This document shows positions 5,929-58,908 of a stretch of 64,000 nucleotides of DNA, piece after piece. Each line of letters begins with the position of its first letter. Positions within the stretch are counted from its first letter, which is position 1. Origin of the DNA: Candidatus Nomurabacteria bacterium GW2011_GWA1_36_15 (GTDB lineage Bacteria > Patescibacteriota > Minisyncoccia > Phycocordibacterales > UBA9973); the NCBI GenBank assembly GCA_000991415.1, contig LBRM01000004.1, positions 1,398-65,397 of the forward strand. The letters run 5' to 3'. The notes below the pieces were generated by a model. The model saw nothing but the letters and a program-made list of their open reading frames with translations, ran no database searches and had not been told where the DNA came from. The position numbers and the translations under genes were made by a program.

Positions 5929-7682
5929 CTACTTTTCTCTTCTATTTCTTTTTTTAGCTTTGTGAGAAATTCTTCAGTGGAAATGTTTTCAAATTTTTTA
6001 TCGTTTCTGCCTTCCACGGTAAGCTTTTTTGATCCTTTTTCCCTGTCACCGATAATTATTAGATATGGAATTTTTTGTACCTTTGCGTTGCGAATTTTTT
6101 TACTCAAAGATTCATTAGATTCATCAAGCTCCACACGCACGTCATTTTCTTTTAGAGTTTTAAAAATTTCAGTGGCATAGTCCAGATGTTTGTCTCCCGA
6201 AATTGGAATAATTTTTATTTGCACTGGAGAGAGCCAAAGAGGGAATGCGCCAGCATAATGTTCAATTAAAATTCCCATAAATCTTTCAAAAGAACCCAAT
6301 ATAGCCACATGTAGAACTACTACTCGATGTTTTTTGCCGTCTTCTCCCACATAATCCATCTCGAAATTATTTGGTTGATTAAAATCAAGTTGTATTGTTG
6401 CTAGTTGCCATTCTCTTCCGATCGAATCTTTTATTTTTATGTCAATTTTAGGTCCATAAAATGCAGCTTCGCCTTCCTCAACGTTGTATTTTAGACCCAT
6501 TTTTTTTGCAGAATTAATTAATATTTTTTCTGCATTCTCCCATATTTCATCATTTCCGAAATATTTTTCTTTATTTTTAGTGTTTCGTGTAGAAACTTCG
6601 ACTTTGTAATTATCAAAACCAAATAATTTGTAAACTTTTCGCATCAAACTAAAAATCATTTCAATTTCTGATTCAATTTGATCAGTTCTTATGAAATGAT
6701 GAGTGTCGTCTTGGGTTAGATTTTTAACGCGCAGAAGTCCGGATAATTCACCGCTTTTTTCATTGCGATAGACGGTTGTATTTTCTGCTATACGTAAAGG
6801 TAAATCACGATAGCTATGTAGTTCTGCATTATATATTTCAAAATGATGAGGGCAATTCATCGCTTTCATGACAAATTCTTCACCATCTTCATCCGTCATA
6901 ATTGGCATCATTGCGTTATATTTACCTATGTGTCCGCTACGAATGTAGAGTTCTTTTCTGGCTATGTGTGGAATGGTTACAAAAAAATAACCCAATTTTT
7001 CTTTTTCTTTTCTTATGAAATTTTCTAATTCAGTTTTAATGATATTGCCTTTTGGTAAATACATTGGTAGCCCTTTGCCAACTAAATCTGAGATAGTAAA
7101 CAAACTAAGTTCTTTTCCTAATTTCTTGTGGTCCCTCTTTTCGGCTTCTTTACGCATTTTGATGTATTCATCAAGTTTTTCTTTTGTCTCAAAAGCCAAT
7201 CCGTAAATACGAGTAAGCATTTTGTTTTTTTCATTTCCACGCCAATATGCTCCAGCCACACGGTCTAACTTAAATGAATCAAATTTAATTTCTTTACTTG
7301 GATTTTTCAAATGTCCTCCTCGGCAAAGATCTGTAAAATCTCCACATTTATAAAAAGTTATTTTTTCACCTTTTCCAATGATTTCTTCTATCAGTTCTAT
7401 TTTGTATTCATTCTTTTTAAAATATTCTTTTGCCTCTTTTTCACTTTTTTCTTTACTCTCAAACTCTTTCCAAGATTTTAAAATCTCTTTCATTTTCTTC
7501 TCTATTTTAGGCAAATCTTTATCAGAAATAGGTGAACTAAACTCAAAATCATAATAAAAACCGTCTTCTATTGATGGGCCGATAGTATTTTTTGTATCTG
7601 GATATATCTTTAAAACAGCTGCAGCTAAAAGGTGAGCTAAAGAATGTCTTAAATTATGCAGTTTTTCATTCTTATTTTCCAT
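5925..7682 (-). CDS. thrS: threonine--tRNA ligase
   Basis: 585 aa; HSLAHLLAAA (HxxxH second-additional domain), class II core FYGPKIDIKIKDSIGREWQLATIQLDFNQP, anticodon-binding C-terminus. Confidence 0.9.
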   Translation of the reverse strand: MENKNEKLHNLRHSLAHLLAAAVLKIYPDTKNTIGPSIEDGFYYDFEFSSPISDKDLPKIEKKMKEILKSWKEFESKEKSEKEAKEYFKKNEYKIELIEEIIGKGEKITFYKCGDFTDLCRGGHLKNPSKEIKFDSFKLDRVAGAYWRGNEKNKMLTRIYGLAFETKEKLDEYIKMRKEAEKRDHKKLGKELSLFTISDLVGKGLPMYLPKGNIIKTELENFIRKEKEKLGYFFVTIPHIARKELYIRSGHIGKYNAMMPIMTDEDGEEFVMKAMNCPHHFEIYNAELHSYRDLPLRIAENTTVYRNEKSGELSGLLRVKNLTQDDTHHFIRTDQIESEIEMIFSLMRKVYKLFGFDNYKVEVSTRNTKNKEKYFGNDEIWENAEKILINSAKKMGLKYNVEEGEAAFYGPKIDIKIKDSIGREWQLATIQLDFNQPNNFEMDYVGEDGKKHRVVVLHVAILGSFERFMGILIEHYAGAFPLWLSPVQIKIIPISGDKHLDYATEIFKTLKENDVRVELDESNESLSKKIRNAKVQKIPYLIIIGDREKGSKKLTVEGRNDKKFENISTEEFLTKLKKEIEEKSS

Positions 7683-7837: not shown

Positions 7838-8572
7838 ATGAACGACATGTTAGCACGCCAAAAAGCACGCGCTGTCGGTAAAATTACCACTGCTCTGCTT
7901 CTAAATGATCCTTCCGAAGAAGATCTACGAGTTATAAACTCGCTTCCTGACGCAACCATAAAAAGACGCGTCAAGACAATCTACTTTCCTGGTGTAAAGG
8001 GTCTTGTAAAAAAAGTTGAAGGGGTGTATCCGGAATCTCTACTTGAGTTTCACGATGGTTGGGTAGAATTCTATAAAAACTTTGGTATTACAATTGACTT
8101 AAATGATTTTCCACTTCCCAAAAATATAATTTTGGAACCGGAACAAAATTATTGGTCTATTGTTGTTCCAGATATGAATCCTCAAAAAGCATTCGAATTA
8201 CGCAAACAAATTACTTCTGTTTATGAATACACAAGTGTTTCAAAAATAATTGATGTGTATCCAAGAATAAAAGTGTCTGTAATTAAAGCTAATTTGGATA
8301 CCAAAGTTGAGTATCCTAATGTTTCGCTCAACAAAAGCATGGAACTTGGTCTATTTGGCACTACATTCACCGAAGGCTGTCTAATTGATGGTCGAGTGTT
8401 CAAAGATAGTGGTGTTCATCTTGATGTTAGTAGTTGGACACTTCACACCGGTTCTCGTGGCTCGGATGGCAGGGTTCCGCGCTCGCGCTGGCTCGACGTC
8501 GAGTTCAATGTGCGTTCCTATAATCCGGACTATGCGAGTCCTTACTTGTCTCTCCGCCAAAAGCAGTTTTAA
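7838..8572 (+). CDS. DGR target protein with C-terminal variable region (VR)
   Basis: 244 aa; AAAGGAG RBS; last ~40 codons (8449-8559) are near-identical to a downstream template repeat except at TR adenines; VR codons R/G/L/D/Y/S correspond to AAY (Asn) codons in TR. Confidence 0.8.
   Translation: MNDMLARQKARAVGKITTALLLNDPSEEDLRVINSLPDATIKRRVKTIYFPGVKGLVKKVEGVYPESLLEFHDGWVEFYKNFGITIDLNDFPLPKNIILEPEQNYWSIVVPDMNPQKAFELRKQITSVYEYTSVSKIIDVYPRIKVSVIKANLDTKVEYPNVSLNKSMELGLFGTTFTEGCLIDGRVFKDSGVHLDVSSWTLHTGSRGSDGRVPRSRWLDVEFNVRSYNPDYASPYLSLRQKQF
8449..8559 (+). repeat. DGR variable region (VR) at 3' end of target gene
   Basis: 111-nt block aligning to 8832-8942; by manual alignment ~22 mismatches, ~20 at positions where TR has A. 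Confidence 0.8.
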
Positions 8573-8601
8573 ACTTTTTGCTTTTGACTTTTAATCTTTT
8601 T

Positions 8602-8634
8602 CGCGTTAGTTTTTAGCTAACGCGATTTTTTTAT
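8602..8634 (+). terminator. rho-independent terminator / GC hairpin downstream of VR
   Basis: cgcgttag-tttttag-ctaacgcg perfect 8-bp stem followed by ATTTTTTT. Confidence 0.7.
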
Positions 8635-8831
8635 GTTAAAATATACTTGGCTAATAAACTGATCTTATAAAATTAAGATAACAGTTTGCCATGTTAAGAA
8701 ACTGCTTACAAAAAATTGAGCATAGATAATACAGTTTAGTAATGATGCTACATATTGCTCACAACCGTGAGAAAACACAGAGAATTAGGCAACTGATTTG
8801 TCGGTGGAATAGATGATTTTTTGTAATAGGA

Positions 8832-8942
8832 CGGTTCTCGTAATTCGGATGGCAATGTTCCGAACTCGAACTGGAACAACGACAAGTTCAATGTGAATTC
8901 AAATAATCCGGACAATGCGAATCCAAACTTGTCTCTCCGCCA
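8832..8942 (+). repeat. DGR template repeat (TR)
   Basis: Non-coding copy of VR; in VR frame encodes GSRNSDGNVPNSNWNNDKFNVNSNNPDNANPNLSLRQ, i.e. 12+ AAY codons, hallmark of adenine-directed mutagenesis templates; 3' end diverges from VR (IMH-like). Confidence 0.8.
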
Positions 8943-8956
8943 GAAGTTTCTCACTT

Positions 8957-8988
8957 AAATCCGCTTTCAATTTTGATTGAGCGGATTT
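8957..8988 (+). promoter_or_regulatory. stable hairpin immediately 3' of TR (possible DGR RNA structural element / terminator)
   Basis: aaatccgct-(14 nt loop)-agcggattt, 9-bp stem, followed by TTTTGTGTTT. Confidence 0.5.
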
Positions 8989-9302
8989 TGTGTTTGCAGA
9001 TATTTTAACCAACCATTTGTCATTTTAGAAATTTCTTGCAATTTTAGTTCTATGTTTAGATATGCTTTTTCTGTTATGACTTTTATTTCATATTCTGTTC
9101 TGAATAATTGTTTTAATGTTTCTATTTGGAGTCTTGCTTTCTTGACCGAAGTTACCTTTTCAGATTTTGGTTCAAGTGAAGCGTTTATTAAAAAAGAAAA
9201 AGCTTGTAAAAATTCTTTTTCAATATAATTATGAATTCCCAATTTGTCTCGTTTCGGCAACTTGTTGCCAATCGTATACACATAGATATATAATTTTCTC
9301 AT
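8967..9302 (-). CDS. avd: Avd-like accessory variability determinant (four-helix-bundle, TIGR02436-like)
   Basis: 111 aa; IYVYTIGNKLPKRDKLGIHNYIEKEF... matches FPKxEKyGLxsQirRAA pattern and C-terminal EIsKMtngWL of bAvd-type proteins; sits between TR and RT but on the opposite strand. Confidence 0.6.
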   Translation of the reverse strand: MRKLYIYVYTIGNKLPKRDKLGIHNYIEKEFLQAFSFLINASLEPKSEKVTSVKKARLQIETLKQLFRTEYEIKVITEKAYLNIELKLQEISKMTNGWLKYLQTQNPLNQN

Positions 9303-9328
9303 TTTGTGAACAACAGGGATGTTAAAAA

Positions 9329-10369
9329 TTGCGTCGGGGGGGGGCTGTTAAAAGTCTTTTCCATAATGTAATAAGTTTATCAAATTTACTTCAAGCTTGG
9401 AAGGAATTTAAAAGGTGTAAAACTAAAAAGACAGATGTTGCTGAATTCGAATTTGATTTAGAAAATAATCTATTTTCTCTACATCAAGAATTGATAAATA
9501 AAACTTACAAACCTACAAAATATCAAGCATTTTTTGTACATGATCCAAAACGCAGACATATACATAAGGCAATAGTCCTAGATAGAGTTTTAAATCAAGC
9601 TATTTTTAGAATTCTTTATCCTATTTTTGATAAACATTTTATTTCTGATTCATATTCTTCACGGGTTAAAAAGGGAACACACGAAGCATCAAGAAGACTT
9701 TTTATAGCTTTACGTAAAAAGAGCGAGAATTGGAAACGACCAGTTTTTGTTCTTAAGTGTGATATTAGAAAATTTTTTGATTCAATAGATCATATTATAT
9801 TATTTGAGTTAATTAAGAAAAAAATTTTAGATATAGATACTTTATGGCTAATCAGCATAATATTACAAAGTTTTGAGAAGTCTTCAAATACTGGGCTTCC
9901 TCTTGGCAATGCGACTAGTCAACTTTTTGCTAATATCTATTTAAATGAATTAGACCAGTTTATAAAACATAAACTCGAAGTTAAGCATTATTTTAGATAT
10001 GCTGATGATTTTGTCATTTTGCAAAATAACAAAATATATCTTGAAAACCTTTTAGAACAGACAGAAGATTTTTTAAAGAATAATTTAAAATTGAATTTGC
10101 ATCCAGATAAAGTTTTTATAAGGAAATTAAAACAAGGAATAGATTTTGTTGGTTATGTTATTTTACCTGATGTGACTGTATTGCGGACAAAAACAAAGAA
10201 AAGAATCTTAAAAAAACTAAAAAAAGCACAAAAAGAATTTCTAGCTGGAAAGATAAGCAAAAACGAGTTTCAACAAATTCAGGCTTCTTATATAGGCGTG
10301 TTGAAACATTGTAGAAGTAATAAAATTAAAAGAGAAATTAAAAAAAGAATGGTTGCTTTTAAAATATAA
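9329..10369 (+). CDS. DGR-type reverse transcriptase
   Basis: 346 aa; RT motifs: N-terminal LFHNVISLSNLLQAWKEFKRCK, KCDIRKFFDSIDH, GLPLGNATSQLFANIYL (DGR-specific (I/L)GxxxSQ), FRYADDFVIL (YxDD). Track start is TTG 9329; ATG 9319 is out of frame by 1 across a G9 homopolymer. Confidence 0.88.
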   Translation: MRRGGAVKSLFHNVISLSNLLQAWKEFKRCKTKKTDVAEFEFDLENNLFSLHQELINKTYKPTKYQAFFVHDPKRRHIHKAIVLDRVLNQAIFRILYPIFDKHFISDSYSSRVKKGTHEASRRLFIALRKKSENWKRPVFVLKCDIRKFFDSIDHIILFELIKKKILDIDTLWLISIILQSFEKSSNTGLPLGNATSQLFANIYLNELDQFIKHKLEVKHYFRYADDFVILQNNKIYLENLLEQTEDFLKNNLKLNLHPDKVFIRKLKQGIDFVGYVILPDVTVLRTKTKKRILKKLKKAQKEFLAGKISKNEFQQIQASYIGVLKHCRSNKIKREIKKRMVAFKI

Positions 10370-10389: not shown

Positions 10390-10608
10390 ATGGTAGTACG
10401 AATGAGACATACAAAGTCGCATACAAAGAACAGGCGTTCTCATCATGCGTTAGTGAGCACAGGTCTTTCTAAGTGCGAAAATTGTAAGAATTTTAAGAAA
10501 CGCCACACAGTTTGCTTGTCCTGTGGATTTTATCGCGGAACGAAAGTATTAGATTTGATTAAAAAAATGGAAAAGAAGCAAAAGAGAGAAAAAGCAAAAA
10601 AGGCATAG
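10390..10608 (+). CDS. rpmF: 50S ribosomal protein L32
   Basis: MVVRMRHTKSHTKNRRSHHAL...CxxC...CxxCG zinc-ribbon typical of L32. Confidence 0.85.
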   Translation: MVVRMRHTKSHTKNRRSHHALVSTGLSKCENCKNFKKRHTVCLSCGFYRGTKVLDLIKKMEKKQKREKAKKA

Positions 10609-10614
10609 AATTAG

Positions 10615-10744
10615 TTAGAAAATTAATGAACGCAGTGAATATAATTTTCTAACCCTGTTAAATCCTATCATAGGCAGGCCTCGCAGAGCGAGGATTTAAC
10701 AGGGTGATGATTTTCATACTCACTTCATTCATTGAAAATCAATT
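10615..10744 (+). promoter_or_regulatory. repeated promoter + 5' hairpin + leader module, copy A (upstream of nusB)
   Basis: TTAGAAAA-19nt-TATAAT, then hairpin ccctgttaaatcct...aggatttaacaggg (14-bp stem), then conserved tail gattttcatactcacttcattcattgaaaatcaattATG; homologous to copies at 20275 and 57142. Confidence 0.6.
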
Positions 10745-11671
10745 ATGGCTAACCGGCACCTTTCAAGATCAATAGTACTCCAAACGCTTTTTGAGTGGGA
10801 TTTTATCTCTACCTCGGGGCAAAATAAAACTTGGACTGATAAAAAAATAAAAGAAGTTCTAAATAAAAATCTTAAAGAATTTGCTCCCGGATTGGAGGAT
10901 AATGTTTTTGTGTTTTCTTTAGTAGAGGAAGTATTGAAAAAATGTAAAGCAGTTGACGAGATAATAAAAAAAGCTGCACCAGACTGGCCGCTGGATAAAA
11001 TTTCCATTGTTGATAGAAATATTTTAAGAATTGGTTTGACAGAACTTCTTTTTGGTAATAGAAATCAAGTACCTCCCAAGGTGGCAATCAATGAAGCAAT
11101 AGAACTGGCTAAAACTTTTGGCGGGGAAAATTCCGGTAAATTTGTGAATGGCGTGCTGGGTGCAGTTTATAAAGAAATTGGCGAACCCGGCAAAGAACAA
11201 ATAAGCAAGAAGAAAAGAAAAGAAGAACCATTAGATATTACAAAGATGCCGGTTGAAAAATTAGGAGGGGCGTTGGTGTACGCAAAAAGAAATGGTAATA
11301 TTTTGTTCGCCTTGGTACATGATGTTTTTGGCTATTGGACTTTATCAAAAGGTAAAGTTGAAGAAAGTGAAGATGTAAAAAATGGCACAATAAGAGAAAT
11401 AAGAGAAGAGATTGGTTTAGATATTATAATTAAAGAAAAGTTGGGAGAAAATGAATATGTAGCTTCTCATCCAGAAAAAGGAAAAATTCTGAAAAAAGTG
11501 GTTTATTTTTTAGCAGAAAGTAAATACCAAAAACTCCAGCTTGAAAATTCCGGCGGGCTAGATGGAGCCAAATGGTTTCAGCTTTCAGAAATTCCGGAAC
11601 TTCGCATTTATAATGATATTATTCCACTTATCACCAAGGCGATTGAAATACTGAATAGTGGAAAGTTATAA
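10745..11671 (+). CDS. nusB: transcription antitermination factor NusB fused to C-terminal Nudix hydrolase domain
   Basis: N-terminal NusB (LFEWDF...DRNILRIGLTEL...ELAKTFGGENSGKFVNGVLG); C-terminal Nudix box GKVEESEDVKNGTIREIREEIGL (Gx5Ex7REUxEExGU). Confidence 0.8.
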   Translation: MANRHLSRSIVLQTLFEWDFISTSGQNKTWTDKKIKEVLNKNLKEFAPGLEDNVFVFSLVEEVLKKCKAVDEIIKKAAPDWPLDKISIVDRNILRIGLTELLFGNRNQVPPKVAINEAIELAKTFGGENSGKFVNGVLGAVYKEIGEPGKEQISKKKRKEEPLDITKMPVEKLGGALVYAKRNGNILFALVHDVFGYWTLSKGKVEESEDVKNGTIREIREEIGLDIIIKEKLGENEYVASHPEKGKILKKVVYFLAESKYQKLQLENSGGLDGAKWFQLSEIPELRIYNDIIPLITKAIEILNSGKL

Positions 11672-20153: not shown

Positions 20154-20274
20154 TTCCCAGGTAAATTTGACAAAAAATCGAATATGAGTATACTAGGAAG
20201 TAAGAGATTGATTGAGTTTCGGATGTATCTCCGTTTGTATTAATAGAGCTTAATCATAAATATCTAAATAATTT

Positions 20275-20412
20275 TTAGAAAAATAAGGAATGCAATAACT
20301 ATATTTTTCTTAACCCTGTTAAATGAAATCTATCGGGTTTCAACTTTTGCTAAGCAAAAGTTATTTAACAGGGTGGCATTTTTATAGTCGTTTTACTCCT
20401 TAAAAATTAGCC
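20275..20412 (+). promoter_or_regulatory. repeated promoter + 5' hairpin + leader module, copy B (upstream of rpoB)
   Basis: TTAGAAAA-19nt-TATATT, hairpin ccctgttaaat...atttaacaggg enclosing cttttgc-taa-gcaaaag, then tail gcatttttatagtcgttttactccttaaaaattagccATG. Confidence 0.6.
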
Positions 20413-23400
20413 ATGCAAACAGAAAAACGTCCGAAAAAATATTTTTCAAGGTATAAAAACCCGCTAATAGAATTTCCGAATTTAATAGAAGCTCAAACTA
20501 AATCCTATAAATGGCTGGTAGAAGAGGGTTTAAAAGAAGTTTTTAAAGAATTTTCTCCAATCATAGATTACTCTGGGAAAAAATTTGAACTTGAATTTAC
20601 CTCCTTTTCTCTGAGCGAACCGAACTGCGAAGAAAATGACGCTAAAATAAATAAACTATCGTATCAAGGGCTCCTTAAAACTCGGGTAAAATTAACGAAC
20701 AAAATATTAGGTACGGTTAAAGAACAGGAGATTTTTATGTCAGAAATTCCCTTAATGACCCCGCACGGAACTTTCATTATAAATGGGGTGGAACGTGTTA
20801 TTGTTCCTCAGCTGGCACGTTCTTTCGGAGTTTTCTTTACTGAGTCAGAAAGTAAAGGTTATATAAGAATAGACAAAAAAAGAAAATTTCCTGCCACAGC
20901 CCTATTGCGTGTTCTGGGTTATAACACCAATGAAACGATATTAAAAGCATTTGAGAAAACTCCTAATTGCAAAGAAGTAATTGAAGCTTGTTTAGCGAAG
21001 GATGTCGCTAAAACATTAAGTGATTCATATATTGAAATATATAAACGTTTAAGAGATGGAGACATGGCTACACCTGAAAATGCTAAAGAGTTCATCAATT
21101 CTTTGTTTACTCCCGAAAGATATGATCTTTCTCCGGTTGGACGATATAGATTCAATAAACGTTTCGATAAGTCATTAGAGGAAAAAGAACTTGTACGCCG
21201 AACTATCTCTAAAGAAGATTTGATGACAGTAATTGCGAATATTATTGTCTTGAACAATACTCTGGGCGCCAAATCTGATGACATAGACCATTTGGGGCAA
21301 AGACGTGTTCGATTTGTTGGAGAAATGCTTCAGCAAAAAGTACGCACAGGCATGATGCAGATTAAAAGAAATATTCAAGACAGAATGTCTATTATTGACG
21401 TTGATACTGCTATGCCTATTCACATTATTAACCAGCGTCCACTTCAAGCCCGCATCAAGGAATTTTTTACTACCAATCAACTTTCACAATTTATGGCGCA
21501 AGAAAATGTACTTTGCGAAATGGAGCACTTGCGTACTCTTTCAGCCCTTGGTCCTGGTGGTCTGACTCGTGAACGTGCAGGTCTCGAGGTGCGAGATGTA
21601 CATCCAAGTCACTATGGAAGAGTTTGTCCAATTCACACTCCGGAAGGCCCTAACATCGGACTTATTTTACATCTTTCTACTTATGCAAAAATTAATGATT
21701 TCGGAATTATTGAAACCCCGTATATAAAAGTAAAAAATGGAAAAATTACCAAGGAAATTCAATATTTAAATGCGCTTGAAGAAGAGAAGTACAATATTGC
21801 TCATGCAGGAATTCCTTATGATGAAAATGGGAAAATAACAGAAGAAAAAGTGGAAGCTAGAGTAAAAACTAATCCGGGTATGATTACTCGCAACCAAGTT
21901 GATTTTATTGATGTGGCAGCCAATCAGGGTTTTTCTGTAGCCACTTCTATGATTCCTTTCTTGGAACACAACGACGCCAATCGCGCCCTGATGGGATCTA
22001 ATATGCAGAAACAAGCTGTTCCTTGCGTGCTTCCCGAAGTACCTTTGGTGGCAACGGGCGTTGAAGCTTTGGCTTCTCGTGACTCTGGCAGAATGGTTCT
22101 TGCCTCAGAGGATGGGGTTGTTTCTTATTTAGATGCAAAAAAAATAATAGTAAAAGGAAAGACAGAAAAAATATATTCTCTTGTTAATTTTTTGAGAAAT
22201 AATAATTTTTCTGCATTTCATCAACGCCCGGCGGTAAATATCGGTCAAAAGGTGAAAAAAGGTGATGTATTAGCCGATACAACAAGCACCGTAGATGGAC
22301 AAATCTCAATTGGTCAGAATGTTTTTATCGCTTTCTTGTCTTGGTCTGGATTAAACTATGAAGATGCTGTCATTATTTCCGAACGGCTGGTAAAGAAAAG
22401 TAAATTTACCAGCGTGTATGTTGAAGAATTTGTCTGCACGGTTCGTGATACCAAACTTGGACCTGAAATTACTACTCGGGACATACCTAATGTCGGAGAA
22501 TTAAAACTTAAAGACTTGGATGAGGACGGCATTGTTCGTATTGGAGCCGAAGTCAGAGAAAATGATATTTTAATCGGTAAAATTACACCTAAAGGTGAGA
22601 CTGAACTTACCCCGGAAGAACGATTATTACGTTCAATTTTTGCTGAAAAAGCGCGTGATGTTAAGGACACCTCCCTTCGTATGGAGCATGGAAAACGCGG
22701 ACGTATTATCGGCATTAAAATTTTCTCCCGTGACTTGGGTCATACTCTTGAGGCAGGGATCATCAAGAAAATTGTTATTGAGGTTGCTCAAATTAGAAAT
22801 ATTTCAGTTGGAGATAAACTTTCTGGACGACATGGAAACAAGGGAGTTATTTCTAGAATCCTTCCGGAGGAAGATATGCCTTACACAGCAGAAGGCATAC
22901 CAGTTGATATAATACTTTCACCCCTGGGTGTTCCTTCTCGTATGAATTTAGGACAAATTTTAGAAATGCATCTTGGCATGGCAGCTAATGCTCTAGGTTA
23001 TCAAGCCGTTGTTCCTCCATTTCTAGGAGCAAAACGCGAAGAAATAAAAGAGGAGTTGAAAAAAGCCGGGCTTCCAGAAAATGGCAAATTAAAACTTTTT
23101 GATGGGCGTACCGGGGAAAGTTTTGATCAGGATGTGGCTGTCGGCTATATGTATATGTTGAAATTGCATCACATGGTGGAAGATAAAATTCATATGCGAT
23201 CTATTGGACCTTATTCTCTTATTACTCAACAGCCTTTAGGGGGAAAAGCTCAAGGTGGAGGACAAAGATTTGGAGAAATGGAAGTTTGGGCCTTGGAAGG
23301 ATATGGGGCAGCCTATACATTGCGAGAAATGCTTACCATCAAGTCCGATGATATTTTGGGTCGTTCTCAGACATTTGATTCTATTATAAAAAATGAAATC

Positions 23401-43031: not shown

Positions 43032-43104
43032 GCCGGCATAGCTCAGTTGGTAGAGCGCCACTTTTGTAAAGTGGATGTCGAGGGTTCAAATCCTTCTGCC
43101 GGCT
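43032..43104 (+). tRNA. tRNA-Thr (anticodon TGT)
   Basis: Cloverleaf: acceptor gccggca/tgccggc, D-arm gctc-agttggta-gagc, anticodon stem ccact/agtgg with loop ttTGTaa, T-arm gaggg-ttcaaat-ccttc; CCA not encoded. Confidence 0.85.
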
Positions 43105-43106
43105 CA

Positions 43107-55156: not shown

Positions 55157-55542
55157 GGTCCTGTATTGGATAGTTGCCCCTCACTGATTTTTAATTCAGT
55201 GGGGGGAGGAAAGTCCGAACACAGCGATCCCTTTTTCTAGGGTGGGAATAGTAGTGGGTAACACCCACATATAGCAATATATAGGTGCGAACAGAGACGT
55301 TTTGTGGTGAAAGCCCCAGAACATCCCCCACCAATTTTACGGTTGGTGGGGGATGAGTTCTACGGTAACGTAGAAAATGAAACGGCTAAATCCTTACTTC
55401 TGTGCAAGATCGTGTTCCCCACCCAGATTCTGGGTGGGGGGAGAATCGCTTGAGTCCTAGAGCAATCTAGGACCTAGATAAATAACTATCACCCTGAACT
55501 TTTTGTAAAGGGCACAGAATTCGGCTTATAGATACAAGACCA
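55157..55542 (+). ncRNA. rnpB: RNase P RNA (bacterial type A)
   Basis: P4 strands GGAGGAAAGTCCGAACACAG and ACAGAATTCGGCTTA (cf. E. coli GGAGGAAAGUCCGGGCUCC / ACAGAACCCGGCUUA); terminal P1 pairing ggtcctgtat/atacaagacc; GNRA-rich internal hairpins. Confidence 0.85.
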
Positions 55543-55550
55543 AAAATATG

Positions 55551-56928: not shown

Positions 56929-57141
56929 TAAAAAGCATAAATAAACAGATACTAAGAATTATCCCTATTTTTATTGGAGATATTTAAAGGACATAGTAAT
57001 GTCCGATAGAATAATTTATGTCCTTTATAGCAAAAAAGAAAAAAAATTTTTTGCTTTTTTGTCCTATTAAATTATTTTACGGACATATAAGCTTGACATT
57101 ATATTTTCTATATGTAATATATCTATTAGCAAAAATAATTA

Positions 57142-57276
57142 TTAAAATAATGAGCGAAGCGAATATATTTAAATAACCCCGTTAAATAACTTTTGCAAAG
57201 CAAAAGTTGAAATCTAAAAGATTTCATTTAACAGGGTAATGATTTTTATAGTCACTTTACTCCTTAAAAATCAATT
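57142..57276 (+). promoter_or_regulatory. repeated promoter + 5' hairpin + leader module, copy C (upstream of secreted repeat protein)
   Basis: TATATT box, hairpin ccccgttaaat...atttaacaggg enclosing cttttgc-aaa-gcaaaag and gaaatc-taaaa-gatttc, then tail gatttttatagtcactttactccttaaaaatcaattATG. Confidence 0.6.
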
Positions 57277-58908
57277 ATGAAAAACATTAAATCAAAAGTC
57301 TTATCATTCGCTATCGTTTTGTTTTTGCTTCTTTCTTTTGGCAGTTTGAATACTTCAATAGCCCAAGCTGTTGAAGCTCAGCCTGTTTGCACTCTTGAAC
57401 AAATATCCGGCAGAACCATTGTTGACCTTACTCCTTATAACGGATTACGTTCAGATTCGGATGAAGCGGCTGCTACAGGAGGACCGTTTGCTACAGTATT
57501 AGTAGCAGGAACATATGATGTAACCTTGCAGTCTTATGATAATCATACAGAGAAAAATCAAATCCAGCCAAATGAACAGTGGTATCTTATTTTGAAAGAT
57601 ATAGGAGATAGCACTATTGCCACCACTTCTGCCATTAGTGATTTACCTGACGATATAGACAACTTGACAGAAATCGTGGATACAAATTTTGTTTTAACGA
57701 GTTCTGTTACATCAGCCACAACCTATCATGATGCTTATCCAGATTCTACTAGTGCAAATAGTATCCGTCCTGTCTGTGCAGCCTTTGATTTAGTTCTTCC
57801 CCCAACCGCTACCATTGAAGCTGTAAAAATTATTTGTCCGACCGAAGATCTACTTCCGAATTGGGGAGCAGGTGGAGAAGACATAACATCCGATACTGCA
57901 AGTGCTTTTTTGGAAGCTAATCCGACTTGTTATACTGAAGATTGGACATTTGAATGGGCTCCAGACAGTACGGTAAATCCAGGCAACCAGACAGAAACGG
58001 GAGGTGAGGATTGGACTGCTTTCACTTCTAGCGCTACAGTTCCAGCAGGAGCCTTAATCTGGGTTCGCGAACAATTCAATAGTGATTACATTTCATTTAG
58101 CGGAGACACTACCGAACCCCGAGATGAAGATGTTTCCGCGGAATTTTACTGCAGTAACGATGTATTAAATTATGATAACTATGATTTTATTGACCCGGTA
58201 GAAGCAGACCAGACTTACTACTGCGTAGGATTCAATGCGCCGATAGAACAACCGACAACAAATCCGCAATGTTCCGATGATGTTGATAATGACGGGGATG
58301 AACTTATAGATTCTGCCGACCCAGGCTGTCATAGTGATGGGAATGCAAGCGATACAGAATCATATGTTCCTAGTGACAATGATGAAACGGATGAAGATGA
58401 TGACGGTGGCGGAGGTGGTGGCGGGGGAAGTGGCAGCCATACGCGATGTTCCGATAACGACGATGGATTAGTAGATAGCGCTGACCCTGGATGCCATTCT
58501 GACGGTAATGCAAGTAATGCTGACTCATACGTTCCATCTGATAGTGACGAACAAAATGGAGGTCAAGTGCTCGGCGCTCAGACTTCCTGCGGTATTTATG
58601 TTGATAAATATCTGCGCAGGGGTTATAAAAACGACGCAGAGGCGGTTAAAAAAGTACAGCTATTTTTGAATGATTACTTGAAATTAAAATTAGAAGTAGA
58701 CGGAATCTATGGGTCTAAAACCGAAGAAGCGGTAAGGGTTTTCCAGATTTTGCACAAAGATAAGATTTTAACCCCATGGGGTGTTACGGCTTCTACCGGC
58801 ATATTCTATCTGACCACTCAAACCGAGGTGAATAATATTATGTGTCCGGATTTGAACTTGCAAATTCCAAGCAACTTGATTAACTTTACCGCTAGTATGA
58901 TTAATTGA
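57277..58908 (+). CDS. secreted repeat-containing protein with C-terminal peptidoglycan-binding (PG_binding_1-like) domain
   Basis: Signal peptide; two ~40-aa Asp-rich repeats CSDxxDNDGDxLxDSADPGCHSDGNASxxxSYVPSDxDE separated by poly-Gly; C-terminus VQLFLNDYLKLKLEVDGIYGSKTEEAVRVFQ. Confidence 0.6.
   Translation: MKNIKSKVLSFAIVLFLLLSFGSLNTSIAQAVEAQPVCTLEQISGRTIVDLTPYNGLRSDSDEAAATGGPFATVLVAGTYDVTLQSYDNHTEKNQIQPNEQWYLILKDIGDSTIATTSAISDLPDDIDNLTEIVDTNFVLTSSVTSATTYHDAYPDSTSANSIRPVCAAFDLVLPPTATIEAVKIICPTEDLLPNWGAGGEDITSDTASAFLEANPTCYTEDWTFEWAPDSTVNPGNQTETGGEDWTAFTSSATVPAGALIWVREQFNSDYISFSGDTTEPRDEDVSAEFYCSNDVLNYDNYDFIDPVEADQTYYCVGFNAPIEQPTTNPQCSDDVDNDGDELIDSADPGCHSDGNASDTESYVPSDNDETDEDDDGGGGGGGGSGSHTRCSDNDDGLVDSADPGCHSDGNASNADSYVPSDSDEQNGGQVLGAQTSCGIYVDKYLRRGYKNDAEAVKKVQLFLNDYLKLKLEVDGIYGSKTEEAVRVFQILHKDKILTPWGVTASTGIFYLTTQTEVNNIMCPDLNLQIPSNLINFTASMIN

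Follow-up and report, generated by a model that had tools for sequence, protein, structure and literature searches.

A three-hairpin intergenic cassette of Paceibacteria-type bacteria with a central palindrome linked to a GIY-YIG nuclease gene

Three repeats of about 135 bp in a 64,000-nucleotide stretch of the Candidatus Nomurabacteria bacterium GW2011_GWA1_36_15 genome (contig LBRM01000004.1, positions 1,398 to 65,397, hereafter the window) are copies of a three-hairpin cassette, which sits just before the start codon of many housekeeping genes in Paceibacteria/Parcubacteria-type ultra-small (CPR) bacteria. The cassette runs from the end of the previous gene, or from that gene's terminator or promoter, exactly to the AUG of the next gene. 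It consists of a hairpin U with a TATAAT-like box in its loop, a central palindrome folding into a three-way junction (CCCTGTTAAAT ... ATTTAACAGGG), and a hairpin T with a stem that closes on the A of the ATG. The central palindrome is a separate unit that occurs alone in many phyla and that, in Paceibacteria, can hold between its arms a gene for a 92-aa GIY-YIG protein, a homolog of the single-strand DNA nuclease Ssn. The three copies of the window are forms without the ORF, and no nuclease gene lies in the window.

The repeats had been noticed in a sequence-only reading, and as an observation they are confirmed at all three places (Table 1). In a three-way alignment, the mean column identity is 77% over 180 columns and identity ends at the ATG. 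The arm TTTAACAGGGT, with up to one mismatch, occurs six times in the window, namely as the two arms of each copy (1.57 expected from shuffles; 0 of 100 shuffles reach 6). Profile searches for the upstream block and for the tail find only these three places in the 64 kb. In copies A and B, TTAGAA is followed by 19 nt and then by TATAAT (A) or TATATT (B), and the 5′ arm starts 7–8 nt after the box. Copies B and C share the inner hairpin aacttttgc-NNN-gcaaaagtt, whereas copy A has a different interior. Each copy folds into a three-way junction plus a second hairpin ending just before the AUG (z = −5.0, −6.2, and −6.6). Three details of the initial description need correction: the interior of B is the reverse complement of that of C (32/38 identical, against 10/38 read directly) and not just a shared hairpin; the tail motif ACUCCUUAAAAAU is present in B and C only, copy A reading AUUCAUUGAAAAU; and the conserved unit starts a few bases earlier in copy C than first described.

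Table 1. Positions of the cassette copies, their parts, and neighboring features in the window
Position	Strand	Feature	Details
10615-10747		Copy A, whole
10616-10651	+	Copy A, hairpin U	Stem TAGAAAATT/AATTTTCTA; 18-nt loop with the mini-hairpin AC-GCA-GT and the TATAAT box (10640-10645); fold −6.7 kcal/mol
10653-10704	+	Copy A, central palindrome	Arms 10653-10663 and 10694-10704; 30-nt interior with two small hairpins
10705-10747	+	Copy A, hairpin T plus ATG	ATG of the NusB-NUDIX gene (10745-10747); compensatory C-G where B and C have U-A
10390-10608	+	72-aa L32-like ORF	Stop codon 6 nt before copy A, which fills a stop-to-start spacer; L32 identity from reading of the sequence, not from a database hit
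20275-20415		Copy B, whole
20276-20312	+	Copy B, hairpin U	TATATT box at 20300-20305
20314-20373	+	Copy B, central palindrome	Arms 20314-20324 and 20363-20373; 38-nt interior
20374-20415	+	Copy B, hairpin T plus ATG	ATG of rpoB (20413-20415)
20167-20194	+	Near-consensus promoter	TTGACA-16-TATACT, about 80 nt upstream of copy B; score 11/12
57139-57279		Copy C, whole	Start approximate
57139-57175	+	Copy C, hairpin U	TATATT box at 57164-57169
57177-57236	+	Copy C, central palindrome	Arms 57177-57187 (CCCCG, one C.A mismatch) and 57226-57236; 38-nt interior
57237-57279	+	Copy C, hairpin T plus ATG	ATG of a 543-aa protein with a signal-like N-terminus and a peptidoglycan-binding domain
57093-57120	+	Promoter-like site	TTGACA-16-TAATAT, about 20 nt upstream of copy C; score 10/12

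The existence of further copies and of covariation had been set beforehand as the test of selection on an RNA structure, and both were found. A scan of one genome per species with GTTAAAT-N20-50-ATTTAACRGGG returned at least 119 loci. Of 128 distinct matches to this one-sided pattern, 85 also carry CCC at the mirrored position, where about 2 are expected by chance. The one position of the arms left free by the pattern covaries (T-A 54, C-G 11, T.G 3, C.A 1; Fisher p = 2e-9), and a variant arm pair, CCCCAGTAAAAC/GTTTTACAGGG, occurs in L240 (loci recovered from other genomes and metagenomes are designated by L and a number). The hosts are Patescibacteria, Desulfobacterales, WOR-3, Omnitrophota, Bacteroidales, Saccharibacteria, Calditrichota, and others. 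The interior usually forms two hairpins (46 of 70 have two hairpin loops in the best fold; median z of the interior −2.2), and the four flanking bases extend the stem as TTYA...TRAA, with a conserved T.G/C.A position. A metagenome scan anchored on the 3′ arm plus the tail gave at least 71 complete modules like those of the window. The full module is present in the genomes of a Paceibacterota (L087) and a Nomurabacteria (L088). The locus L185 is syntenic with 18.7–24.4 kb of the window at 72%–78% identity and also has the module before rpoB.

In hairpin U, the apparent −35 sequence noted upstream of the box in the sequence-only reading (TTAGAAAA; TTAGAAAAT) is the 5′ arm of a covarying stem, and it pairs with ATTTTCTAA just after the TATAAT-like box. 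The pair changes freely to AAAATA/TATTTT, GAAAATC/GATTTTC, GGAAACC/GGTTTCC, or AAAACT/AGTTTT, even between two modules of one contig (L181, L142). On 38 copies, 86.1% of cells are paired, the covariation score is 0.459 against 0.198 in shuffles (0/500), and the slid controls collapse. The conserved 19-nt loop, AAnGAGCGAAGCGAnTATA, contains a 2-bp mini-hairpin that also covaries (GC..GC, AC..GT, GT..AC, AT..AT; 97% paired). The stem of hairpin T runs from the T after the 3′ arm to the A of the ATG, with 95.9% of cells paired, 77 cells changed on both sides against 23.9 in shuffles, and a score of 0.356 against 0.149 (0/500); there too, all slid controls collapse. The three pairs next to the AUG switch among GAU/AUC, GGC/GCC, AAA/UUU, GAA/UUC, and GAC/GUC, a pattern to which the C-G pair of copy A belongs.

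At the consensus level, the T loop is the reverse complement of the U loop. However, the two loops do not covary within a module: the mean duplex energy is −13.4 kcal/mol with the true partner against −14.3 with swapped partners, and paired cells number 87/120 against 88.6 in permutations. Each loop has a 2-bp mini-hairpin with a GNA-type triloop, on the top strand in U (20/38) and on the bottom strand in T (TNC in 26/38); d(GCGNAGC) is a classic stable DNA mini-hairpin. Counts of G.T against A.C pairs show no asymmetry and do not single out the sense strand as the folding strand.

Every copy retained sits just upstream of an ATG on the same strand (an ATG within 70 nt of the tail was a selection criterion), and most of these open long ORFs. 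Downstream genes include those for HSP70, RecA, FtsZ, S12, L27, L31, L7/L12, MraZ, MurG, NusB, RNase J, DnaJ, H+-PPase, PurA, and small secreted proteins; from their N-termini, we also read NusA, L10, L9, L3, L20, L36, SecE, and RecR. The same gene carries the cassette in different genomes (recA in six, dnaK in four, and rpoB in both the window and L185). What lies upstream varies. In 31 of 69 copies, a same-strand ORF of at least 90 aa ends no more than 45 nt before the 5′ arm, its stop codon being then inside or against U, as in a putative ftsW-murG pair (from reading of the upstream ORF) and in X-recA and X-recR pairs. Other copies directly follow a terminator-like hairpin with a T-run (L143, L151, L183, L189–L191). 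Others have a near-consensus promoter upstream of U that is conserved between genomes while its flanks diverge, as for rpoB (the window and L185) and for dnaK (TTGACA-18-TATACT in L167, L207, and L226). U therefore cannot be the only promoter and is probably transcribed in many copies. The hairpin is not necessarily 5′-terminal, and a promoter role for the box in U is unproven.

The absence of a Shine–Dalgarno sequence, first noted as a feature of the tail, is genome-wide: there is almost no such motif before any gene, and several genes have a TATAAT box 6–7 nt before the ATG, which looks leaderless. The resemblance of the tail to the 16S rRNA 3′ end (ACUCCUU) is not conserved across the family; by inspection, it is present in only some of the copies, and at the consensus level it is simply the complement of the U-loop motif.

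In L166, L214, L216, L191/L228, L125, L230, L177 (frameshifted), and L161, the two inner hairpins are replaced by an ORF of about 92 aa that lies between the arms. It starts shortly after the 5′ arm and its last codons are the 3′ arm (TAT TTA ACA GGG TRA, or YLTG*). The only Pfam matches of the 92-aa protein are GIY-YIG (PF01541, residues 10–79, E = 4.8e-17) and the overlapping related T5orf172. The family has more than 1800 sequence clusters, and those that carry names are from Paceibacterota or Parcubacteria; 96 of 118 members end in KSYLTG. Loci from four genomes, found by protein similarity alone (L240, L242, L244, L247), show the same layout, with U, the 5′ arm overlapping the ATG, the ORF, and the 3′ arm, upstream of nusA, rplJ, or a small gene. 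In these four genomes, 20 kb around the nuclease gene holds no other cassette. L161 has the arms and the ORF but neither U nor T, so the arms belong to the nuclease unit and not to the cassette. Sites with and without the ORF occur at the same gene (for rplJ, L143 against L166 and L244; for nusA, L151 and L189 against L214 and L240).

A second GIY-YIG family, seen in L074, L089, and L239, is flanked by sequences that match the published Neisseria NTS/SRM repeat (GTCATTCCCGCGAACGCGGGAATCCAGC), which identifies it as the Ssn family of ssDNA nucleases (Chenal et al., Nat Commun 2025; PMC11893778). Profile comparison (hhalign) aligns the two families with a probability of 98.7% (E = 1.6e-16, 39% identity over 74 columns), but only over the core; this core match is what bears on membership of the cd10448 clade. 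The tails differ (KSYLTG* here, WNRKWK...NPxWxDLY in Ssn). The nearest solved structures are the UPF0213 proteins 1zg2 and 1ywl. By inspection, the arms CCCTGTTAAAT/ATTTAACAGGG contain no GTCWY core and thus do not match the SRM pattern HGTCWY N0-2 YYVSBRH N0-5 WNVSBRG N0-2 RNCYNB, and the canonical NTS core is also absent from the window. In L089, the palindrome is nested inside the loop of an SRM hairpin.

The center of the cassette turns over. Besides the flip between copies B and C, the two modules of L142 are reverse complements of each other, and the orthologous rpoB modules of the window and L185 keep U and T but differ in the interior. Some U...T frames hold a different palindrome, CCAGCCCCACTTTTAA...TTAAAAGTGGGGCTGG (L232, L181), or long inserts (L168, L199, L219). 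We did not observe an empty frame among 44 U hits, a sample biased toward loci with the palindrome. Nonorthologous modules are 78%–85% identical to copy C, which is more than syntenic coding DNA.

Comparison of sequences establishes the three-part architecture with base pairing under selection in U, T, and the arms, the lock to the start codon and, in many copies, to the previous stop codon, the conservation at orthologous housekeeping genes, the independent spread of the palindrome across phyla, its role as the home of an Ssn-related GIY-YIG gene, and the flipping and replacement of its interior. The function, on the other hand, is inferred from sequence alone, and the explanation we prefer is about as likely as not. 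In this view, the cassette is transcribed with, or just ahead of, the downstream gene and acts mainly as a folded leader or intercistronic RNA. The strong central junction and hairpin U would shield the RNA of the downstream cistron, and hairpin T would set access to a start codon in a genome without Shine–Dalgarno sites; the box in U may add an internal promoter, which the copies following terminators seem to need. The stem of T includes the A of the AUG in every copy examined, and a DNA-only repeat would have no evident reason to end at the start codon of dozens of different genes. The palindrome would persist and be reshuffled (flipped, replaced, or gaining and losing the ORF) by recombination between copies, with U and T as shared flanking homology. 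The nuclease, whose activity and ssDNA specificity are inferred by homology, is most simply seen as a resident, RAYT-like or Ssn-like enzyme that recognizes the palindrome and probably promotes this recombination. This model does not explain why the same loop motif sits on opposite strands in U and T without the two loops pairing, which fits recognition at the DNA level better than a purely RNA role and keeps the mobile-repeat reading alive. Also against it are the GNA-type mini-hairpins on opposite strands, the lack of asymmetry in the wobble pairs, the copies that directly follow a terminator-like hairpin and would need a promoter of their own, the absence of a nuclease gene from the window, and the absence of other cassettes from the 20 kb around the nuclease gene in four genomes.

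The interpretation given in the sequence-only reading, developed here as a portable promoter and leader cassette with U as the promoter, transcription starting 1–3 nt before the 5′ arm, the junction as a 5′-terminal stem–loop protecting the mRNA from 5′-end-dependent RNases, and T simply as the leader, is partly supported: the module is a recurrent structured element with selection on base pairing, but the promoter reading appears unlikely. The −10-like box keeps a fixed distance of 7–9 nt from the 5′ arm across the family, the promoter scan scores U at 10/12 in copy A and 9/12 in copies B and C, genes preceded by a terminator-like hairpin need a promoter inside the cassette, the nuclease ORF has no other obvious promoter, and genes for RNase J and RNase Y exist in these genomes. 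But the −35 is not conserved as sequence, the spacer is 18–19 nt (16–18 nt in a sigma-70-type promoter), stronger promoters lie upstream at rpoB and dnaK, the upstream ORF runs into U in the 31 copies mentioned, and a promoter alone explains neither the covariation of the U stem nor the mirrored T loop. That reading also missed that the palindrome is a separate repeat of many phyla, that it is tied to a GIY-YIG gene, and that its interior flips. A nonautonomous mobile or recombinogenic DNA repeat (like a REPIN, a MITE, or an Ssn-related motif), with hairpins recognized by the nuclease as single-stranded or cruciform DNA and effects on expression secondary or co-opted, appears equally unlikely. 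It would fit the multicopy palindrome of many phyla with the nuclease gene between its arms, the loop motif on opposite strands at the two ends with its GNA-type mini-hairpins, the flipped interiors, the nesting in L089, and the identity between nonorthologous cassettes. But random insertion would not produce a T stem closing on the start codon in all ~70 copies examined (each selected for an ATG after the tail), positions are conserved at orthologous genes, where only the interior, the ORF, and the orientation vary, no target-site duplications are seen (the arms are inverted, but the TTYA...TRAA flanks extend the stem and are not direct repeats), no empty frame was found in the biased sample above, and a search of viral contigs gave one palindrome and no close relative of the nuclease, which also speaks against a phage origin.

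A structural switch or attenuator is less likely still. A ribosome terminating in the 5′ arm of U, or some other factor, might remodel the U/T pairing so that the complementary loops pair and the AUG is freed, giving long-range translational coupling; or the junction followed by GAUUUUU might act as a factor-dependent transcription attenuator for housekeeping operons. The stop codon inside the 5′ arm of U in many copies, the start codon in the stem of T, the consensus complementarity of the loops, the need of internal cistrons for some other way to initiate in a genome without Shine–Dalgarno sites and with many leaderless-looking starts, the U-rich run after the junction, and the presence of nusA, nusB, and rpoB among the genes served are in line with it. 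However, the loops do not covary, many copies have no abutting upstream ORF, and the terminator scan calls no site at any of the three copies, the T-run starting 3–5 nt after the stem instead of within 0–2 nt as in an intrinsic terminator. A more far-reaching possibility, improbable but not excluded, is a new kind of intercistronic device, a stop-to-start RNA in which U holds the upstream stop codon and T the downstream start codon, with mutually complementary loops, so that translation or decay of the upstream part would control initiation at the next gene, while a domesticated Ssn-like nuclease living in the palindrome would keep the dozens of cassettes of a genome alike by break-induced gene conversion.

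Among described systems, the closest is that of the Ssn nucleases and their NTS/SRM hairpin repeats (PMC11893778), with, in both, an evidently single-domain GIY-YIG protein of about 92–98 aa tied to a hairpin-forming repeat that is multicopy, intergenic, oriented, conserved across phyla, and clustered next to important genes. Here, apart from the distinct repeat and protein tail, the gene lies inside one hairpin, between its two arms, rather than between complete hairpins, the hairpin is a three-way junction, and in Paceibacteria the repeat is built into a stop-to-start cassette. As in REP/REPIN repeats with their RAYT transposase, a resident, mostly single-copy nuclease-type gene is flanked by inverted copies of a short palindromic repeat, and ORF-less copies are scattered in intergenic spacers and can act on mRNA; but the enzyme is GIY-YIG and not a HUH/Y1 transposase, and the repeat sequence and architecture are unrelated. 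The Correia elements (CREE) of Neisseria are also palindromic intergenic repeats of about 100–150 bp just upstream of genes, which can supply promoter boxes and form hairpins in 5′ UTRs processed by RNase III; they have long terminal inverted repeats and a TA duplication and insert at variable places, whereas here the right end is locked to the start codon, positions are conserved between genomes, and no duplication is seen. With free-standing GIY-YIG homing endonuclease genes (for example the Seg genes of T4), the cassette shares a small ORF present or absent at the same intergenic site upstream of conserved genes; those enzymes carry extra DNA-binding domains and live in phages, whereas the protein here appears to be a bare GIY-YIG domain, chromosomal, with a palindromic site that travels with it. 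The 5′ stem–loop mRNA stabilizers (ompA, ermC/aprE leaders) would be similar if transcription starts at the box of U, since a strong stem–loop would lie within 1–3 nt of the 5′ end; there is no sequence relation, and the cassette is often internal to operons.

No Rfam 15 family reaches its gathering threshold in the cassette (the whole window gives only RNase P RNA and a tRNA, and a permissive search with copy B gives nothing better than E = 1), and in the open-access literature searched we found no paper describing the cassette, its palindrome, or the KSYLTG nuclease family; a search on the arm sequences returned only chance primer matches, for example in the Picrophilus plasmid paper. What is new with respect to Ssn/NTS is the repeat, the arrangement with the gene inside the hairpin, and the joining to a lineage-specific structured leader. 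Paceibacteria and their relatives make up a large share of groundwater bacteria, and almost nothing is known about how they control genes. One shared, strongly structured cassette in front of recA, dnaK, rpoB, nusA, ftsZ, and ribosomal-protein genes, in genomes without Shine–Dalgarno sites, points to a common and testable layer of expression control. The palindrome widens the pairing of small GIY-YIG ssDNA nucleases with hairpin repeats by a second protein family, which suggests further sequence-specific ssDNA nucleases that could be useful tools, and it gives a clear example of a selfish or domesticated repeat embedded in essential regulatory DNA.

Other short motifs in the cassette do not hold up on comparison. 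Both heptamers of an integron attC site (RYYYAAC on the 5′ side and GTTRRRY on the 3′ side) are present, but in the opposite order (GTTAAAT ... ATTTAAC). The XerD arm of dif (TTATGTTAAAT) shares TGTTAAAT with the arm, but the orientation relative to any central region is wrong and no 28-bp site can be formed, so that the match was set aside as coincidence. A small ORF on the minus strand, behind the AAGGAG in the complement of T, has a reading frame that is not conserved between copies; in the upstream mini-ORF of U (ATG AAC GCA GTG...), the ATG is replaced by ACG or AGG in many copies; and a hammerhead-like UGAUGA after the 3′ arm is not conserved. In the palindrome, the inner hairpin loops are A-rich on the sense strand about three times as often as they are U-rich.

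Besides the three cassette copies, the window carries a diversity-generating retroelement, in which the 3′ end of an ORF and an intergenic copy are 80% identical. In 20 of the 23 differences between them, the second copy has an A, and a reverse transcriptase (Pfam RVT_1, E = 9e-23) follows. The window also contains a bacterial RNase P RNA of class A (124 bits) and a tRNA-Thr (with the TGT anticodon). Among all gene starts of the window, almost none is preceded by a Shine-Dalgarno motif, whereas several genes have a TATAAT box 6-7 nt before the ATG (for example, the genes starting at 277, 31190, 32664, 50613(-), 52718, and 61682), which suggests widespread leaderless mRNAs.

Coordinates of additional features in the window and in the related loci (L numbers)
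Sequence	Positions	Feature
Window	7838-10369	Diversity-generating retroelement
Window	7838-8572	ORF of the retroelement
Window	8449-8563	3′ end of that ORF, repeated in the intergenic copy
Window	8832-8946	Intergenic copy
Window	9329-10369	Reverse transcriptase
Window	55158-55544	RNase P RNA, class A
Window	43032-43105	tRNA-Thr(TGT)
L232	about 6942-7090	U...T frame with a second type of palindrome
L181	about 6132-6270	U...T frame with a second type of palindrome
L089	1150-1300	Ssn-type pseudogene, SRM hairpins, and nested palindrome
L074	5170-5250	NTS copies next to an Ssn-type gene
L239	2950-3360	NTS copies next to an Ssn-type gene
L240	9740-9900	GC-richer stretch that looks structured
L240	10290-10430	Second cassette before nusA
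L247	10290-10425	Second cassette before nusA
L008	679-734 and 6201-6256	Palindrome copies within the terminal inverted repeats

In two of the related loci (L232 and L181), the frame between hairpins U and T holds a second type of palindrome, CCAGCCCCACTTTTAA...TTAAAAGTGGGGCTGG, with an interior of about 75 nt, in place of the CCCTGTTAAAT type. In the two loci L240 and L247 (both found by similarity to the GIY-YIG protein), a second cassette comes directly after the predicted nuclease gene and before nusA, and its arms have covaried to CCCCAGTAAAAC/GTTTTACAGGG. In L240, a GC-richer stretch that looks structured lies between a divergent gene and the nuclease cassette, without any significant hit in Rfam (best E = 0.086).

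The CCCTGTTAAAT palindrome is also met together with the Ssn-type repeats. In L089 (a locus from Desulfobacterales; also in locus L094), an Ssn-type pseudogene is flanked by SRM hairpins and the CCCTGTTAAAT palindrome is nested inside the loop of the downstream SRM (CGTCATCCCGGC ... GCCGGGATCCAGT). In L074 (Patescibacteria) and L239 (Omnitrophota), near-perfect copies of the Neisseria NTS (GTCATTCCCGCG..CGCGGGAATC) lie next to Ssn-type genes, in phyla far from Neisseria. The locus L008 is a 6.9-kb contig whose two ends are long inverted repeats, each including a palindrome copy, and it is either a composite element or a fold-back assembly artefact. In four further loci (L212, L193, L130, and L237), other small GIY-YIG ORFs, unrelated to the cassette, lie next to or inside tRNA-like sequences and may be intron-borne homing endonucleases.
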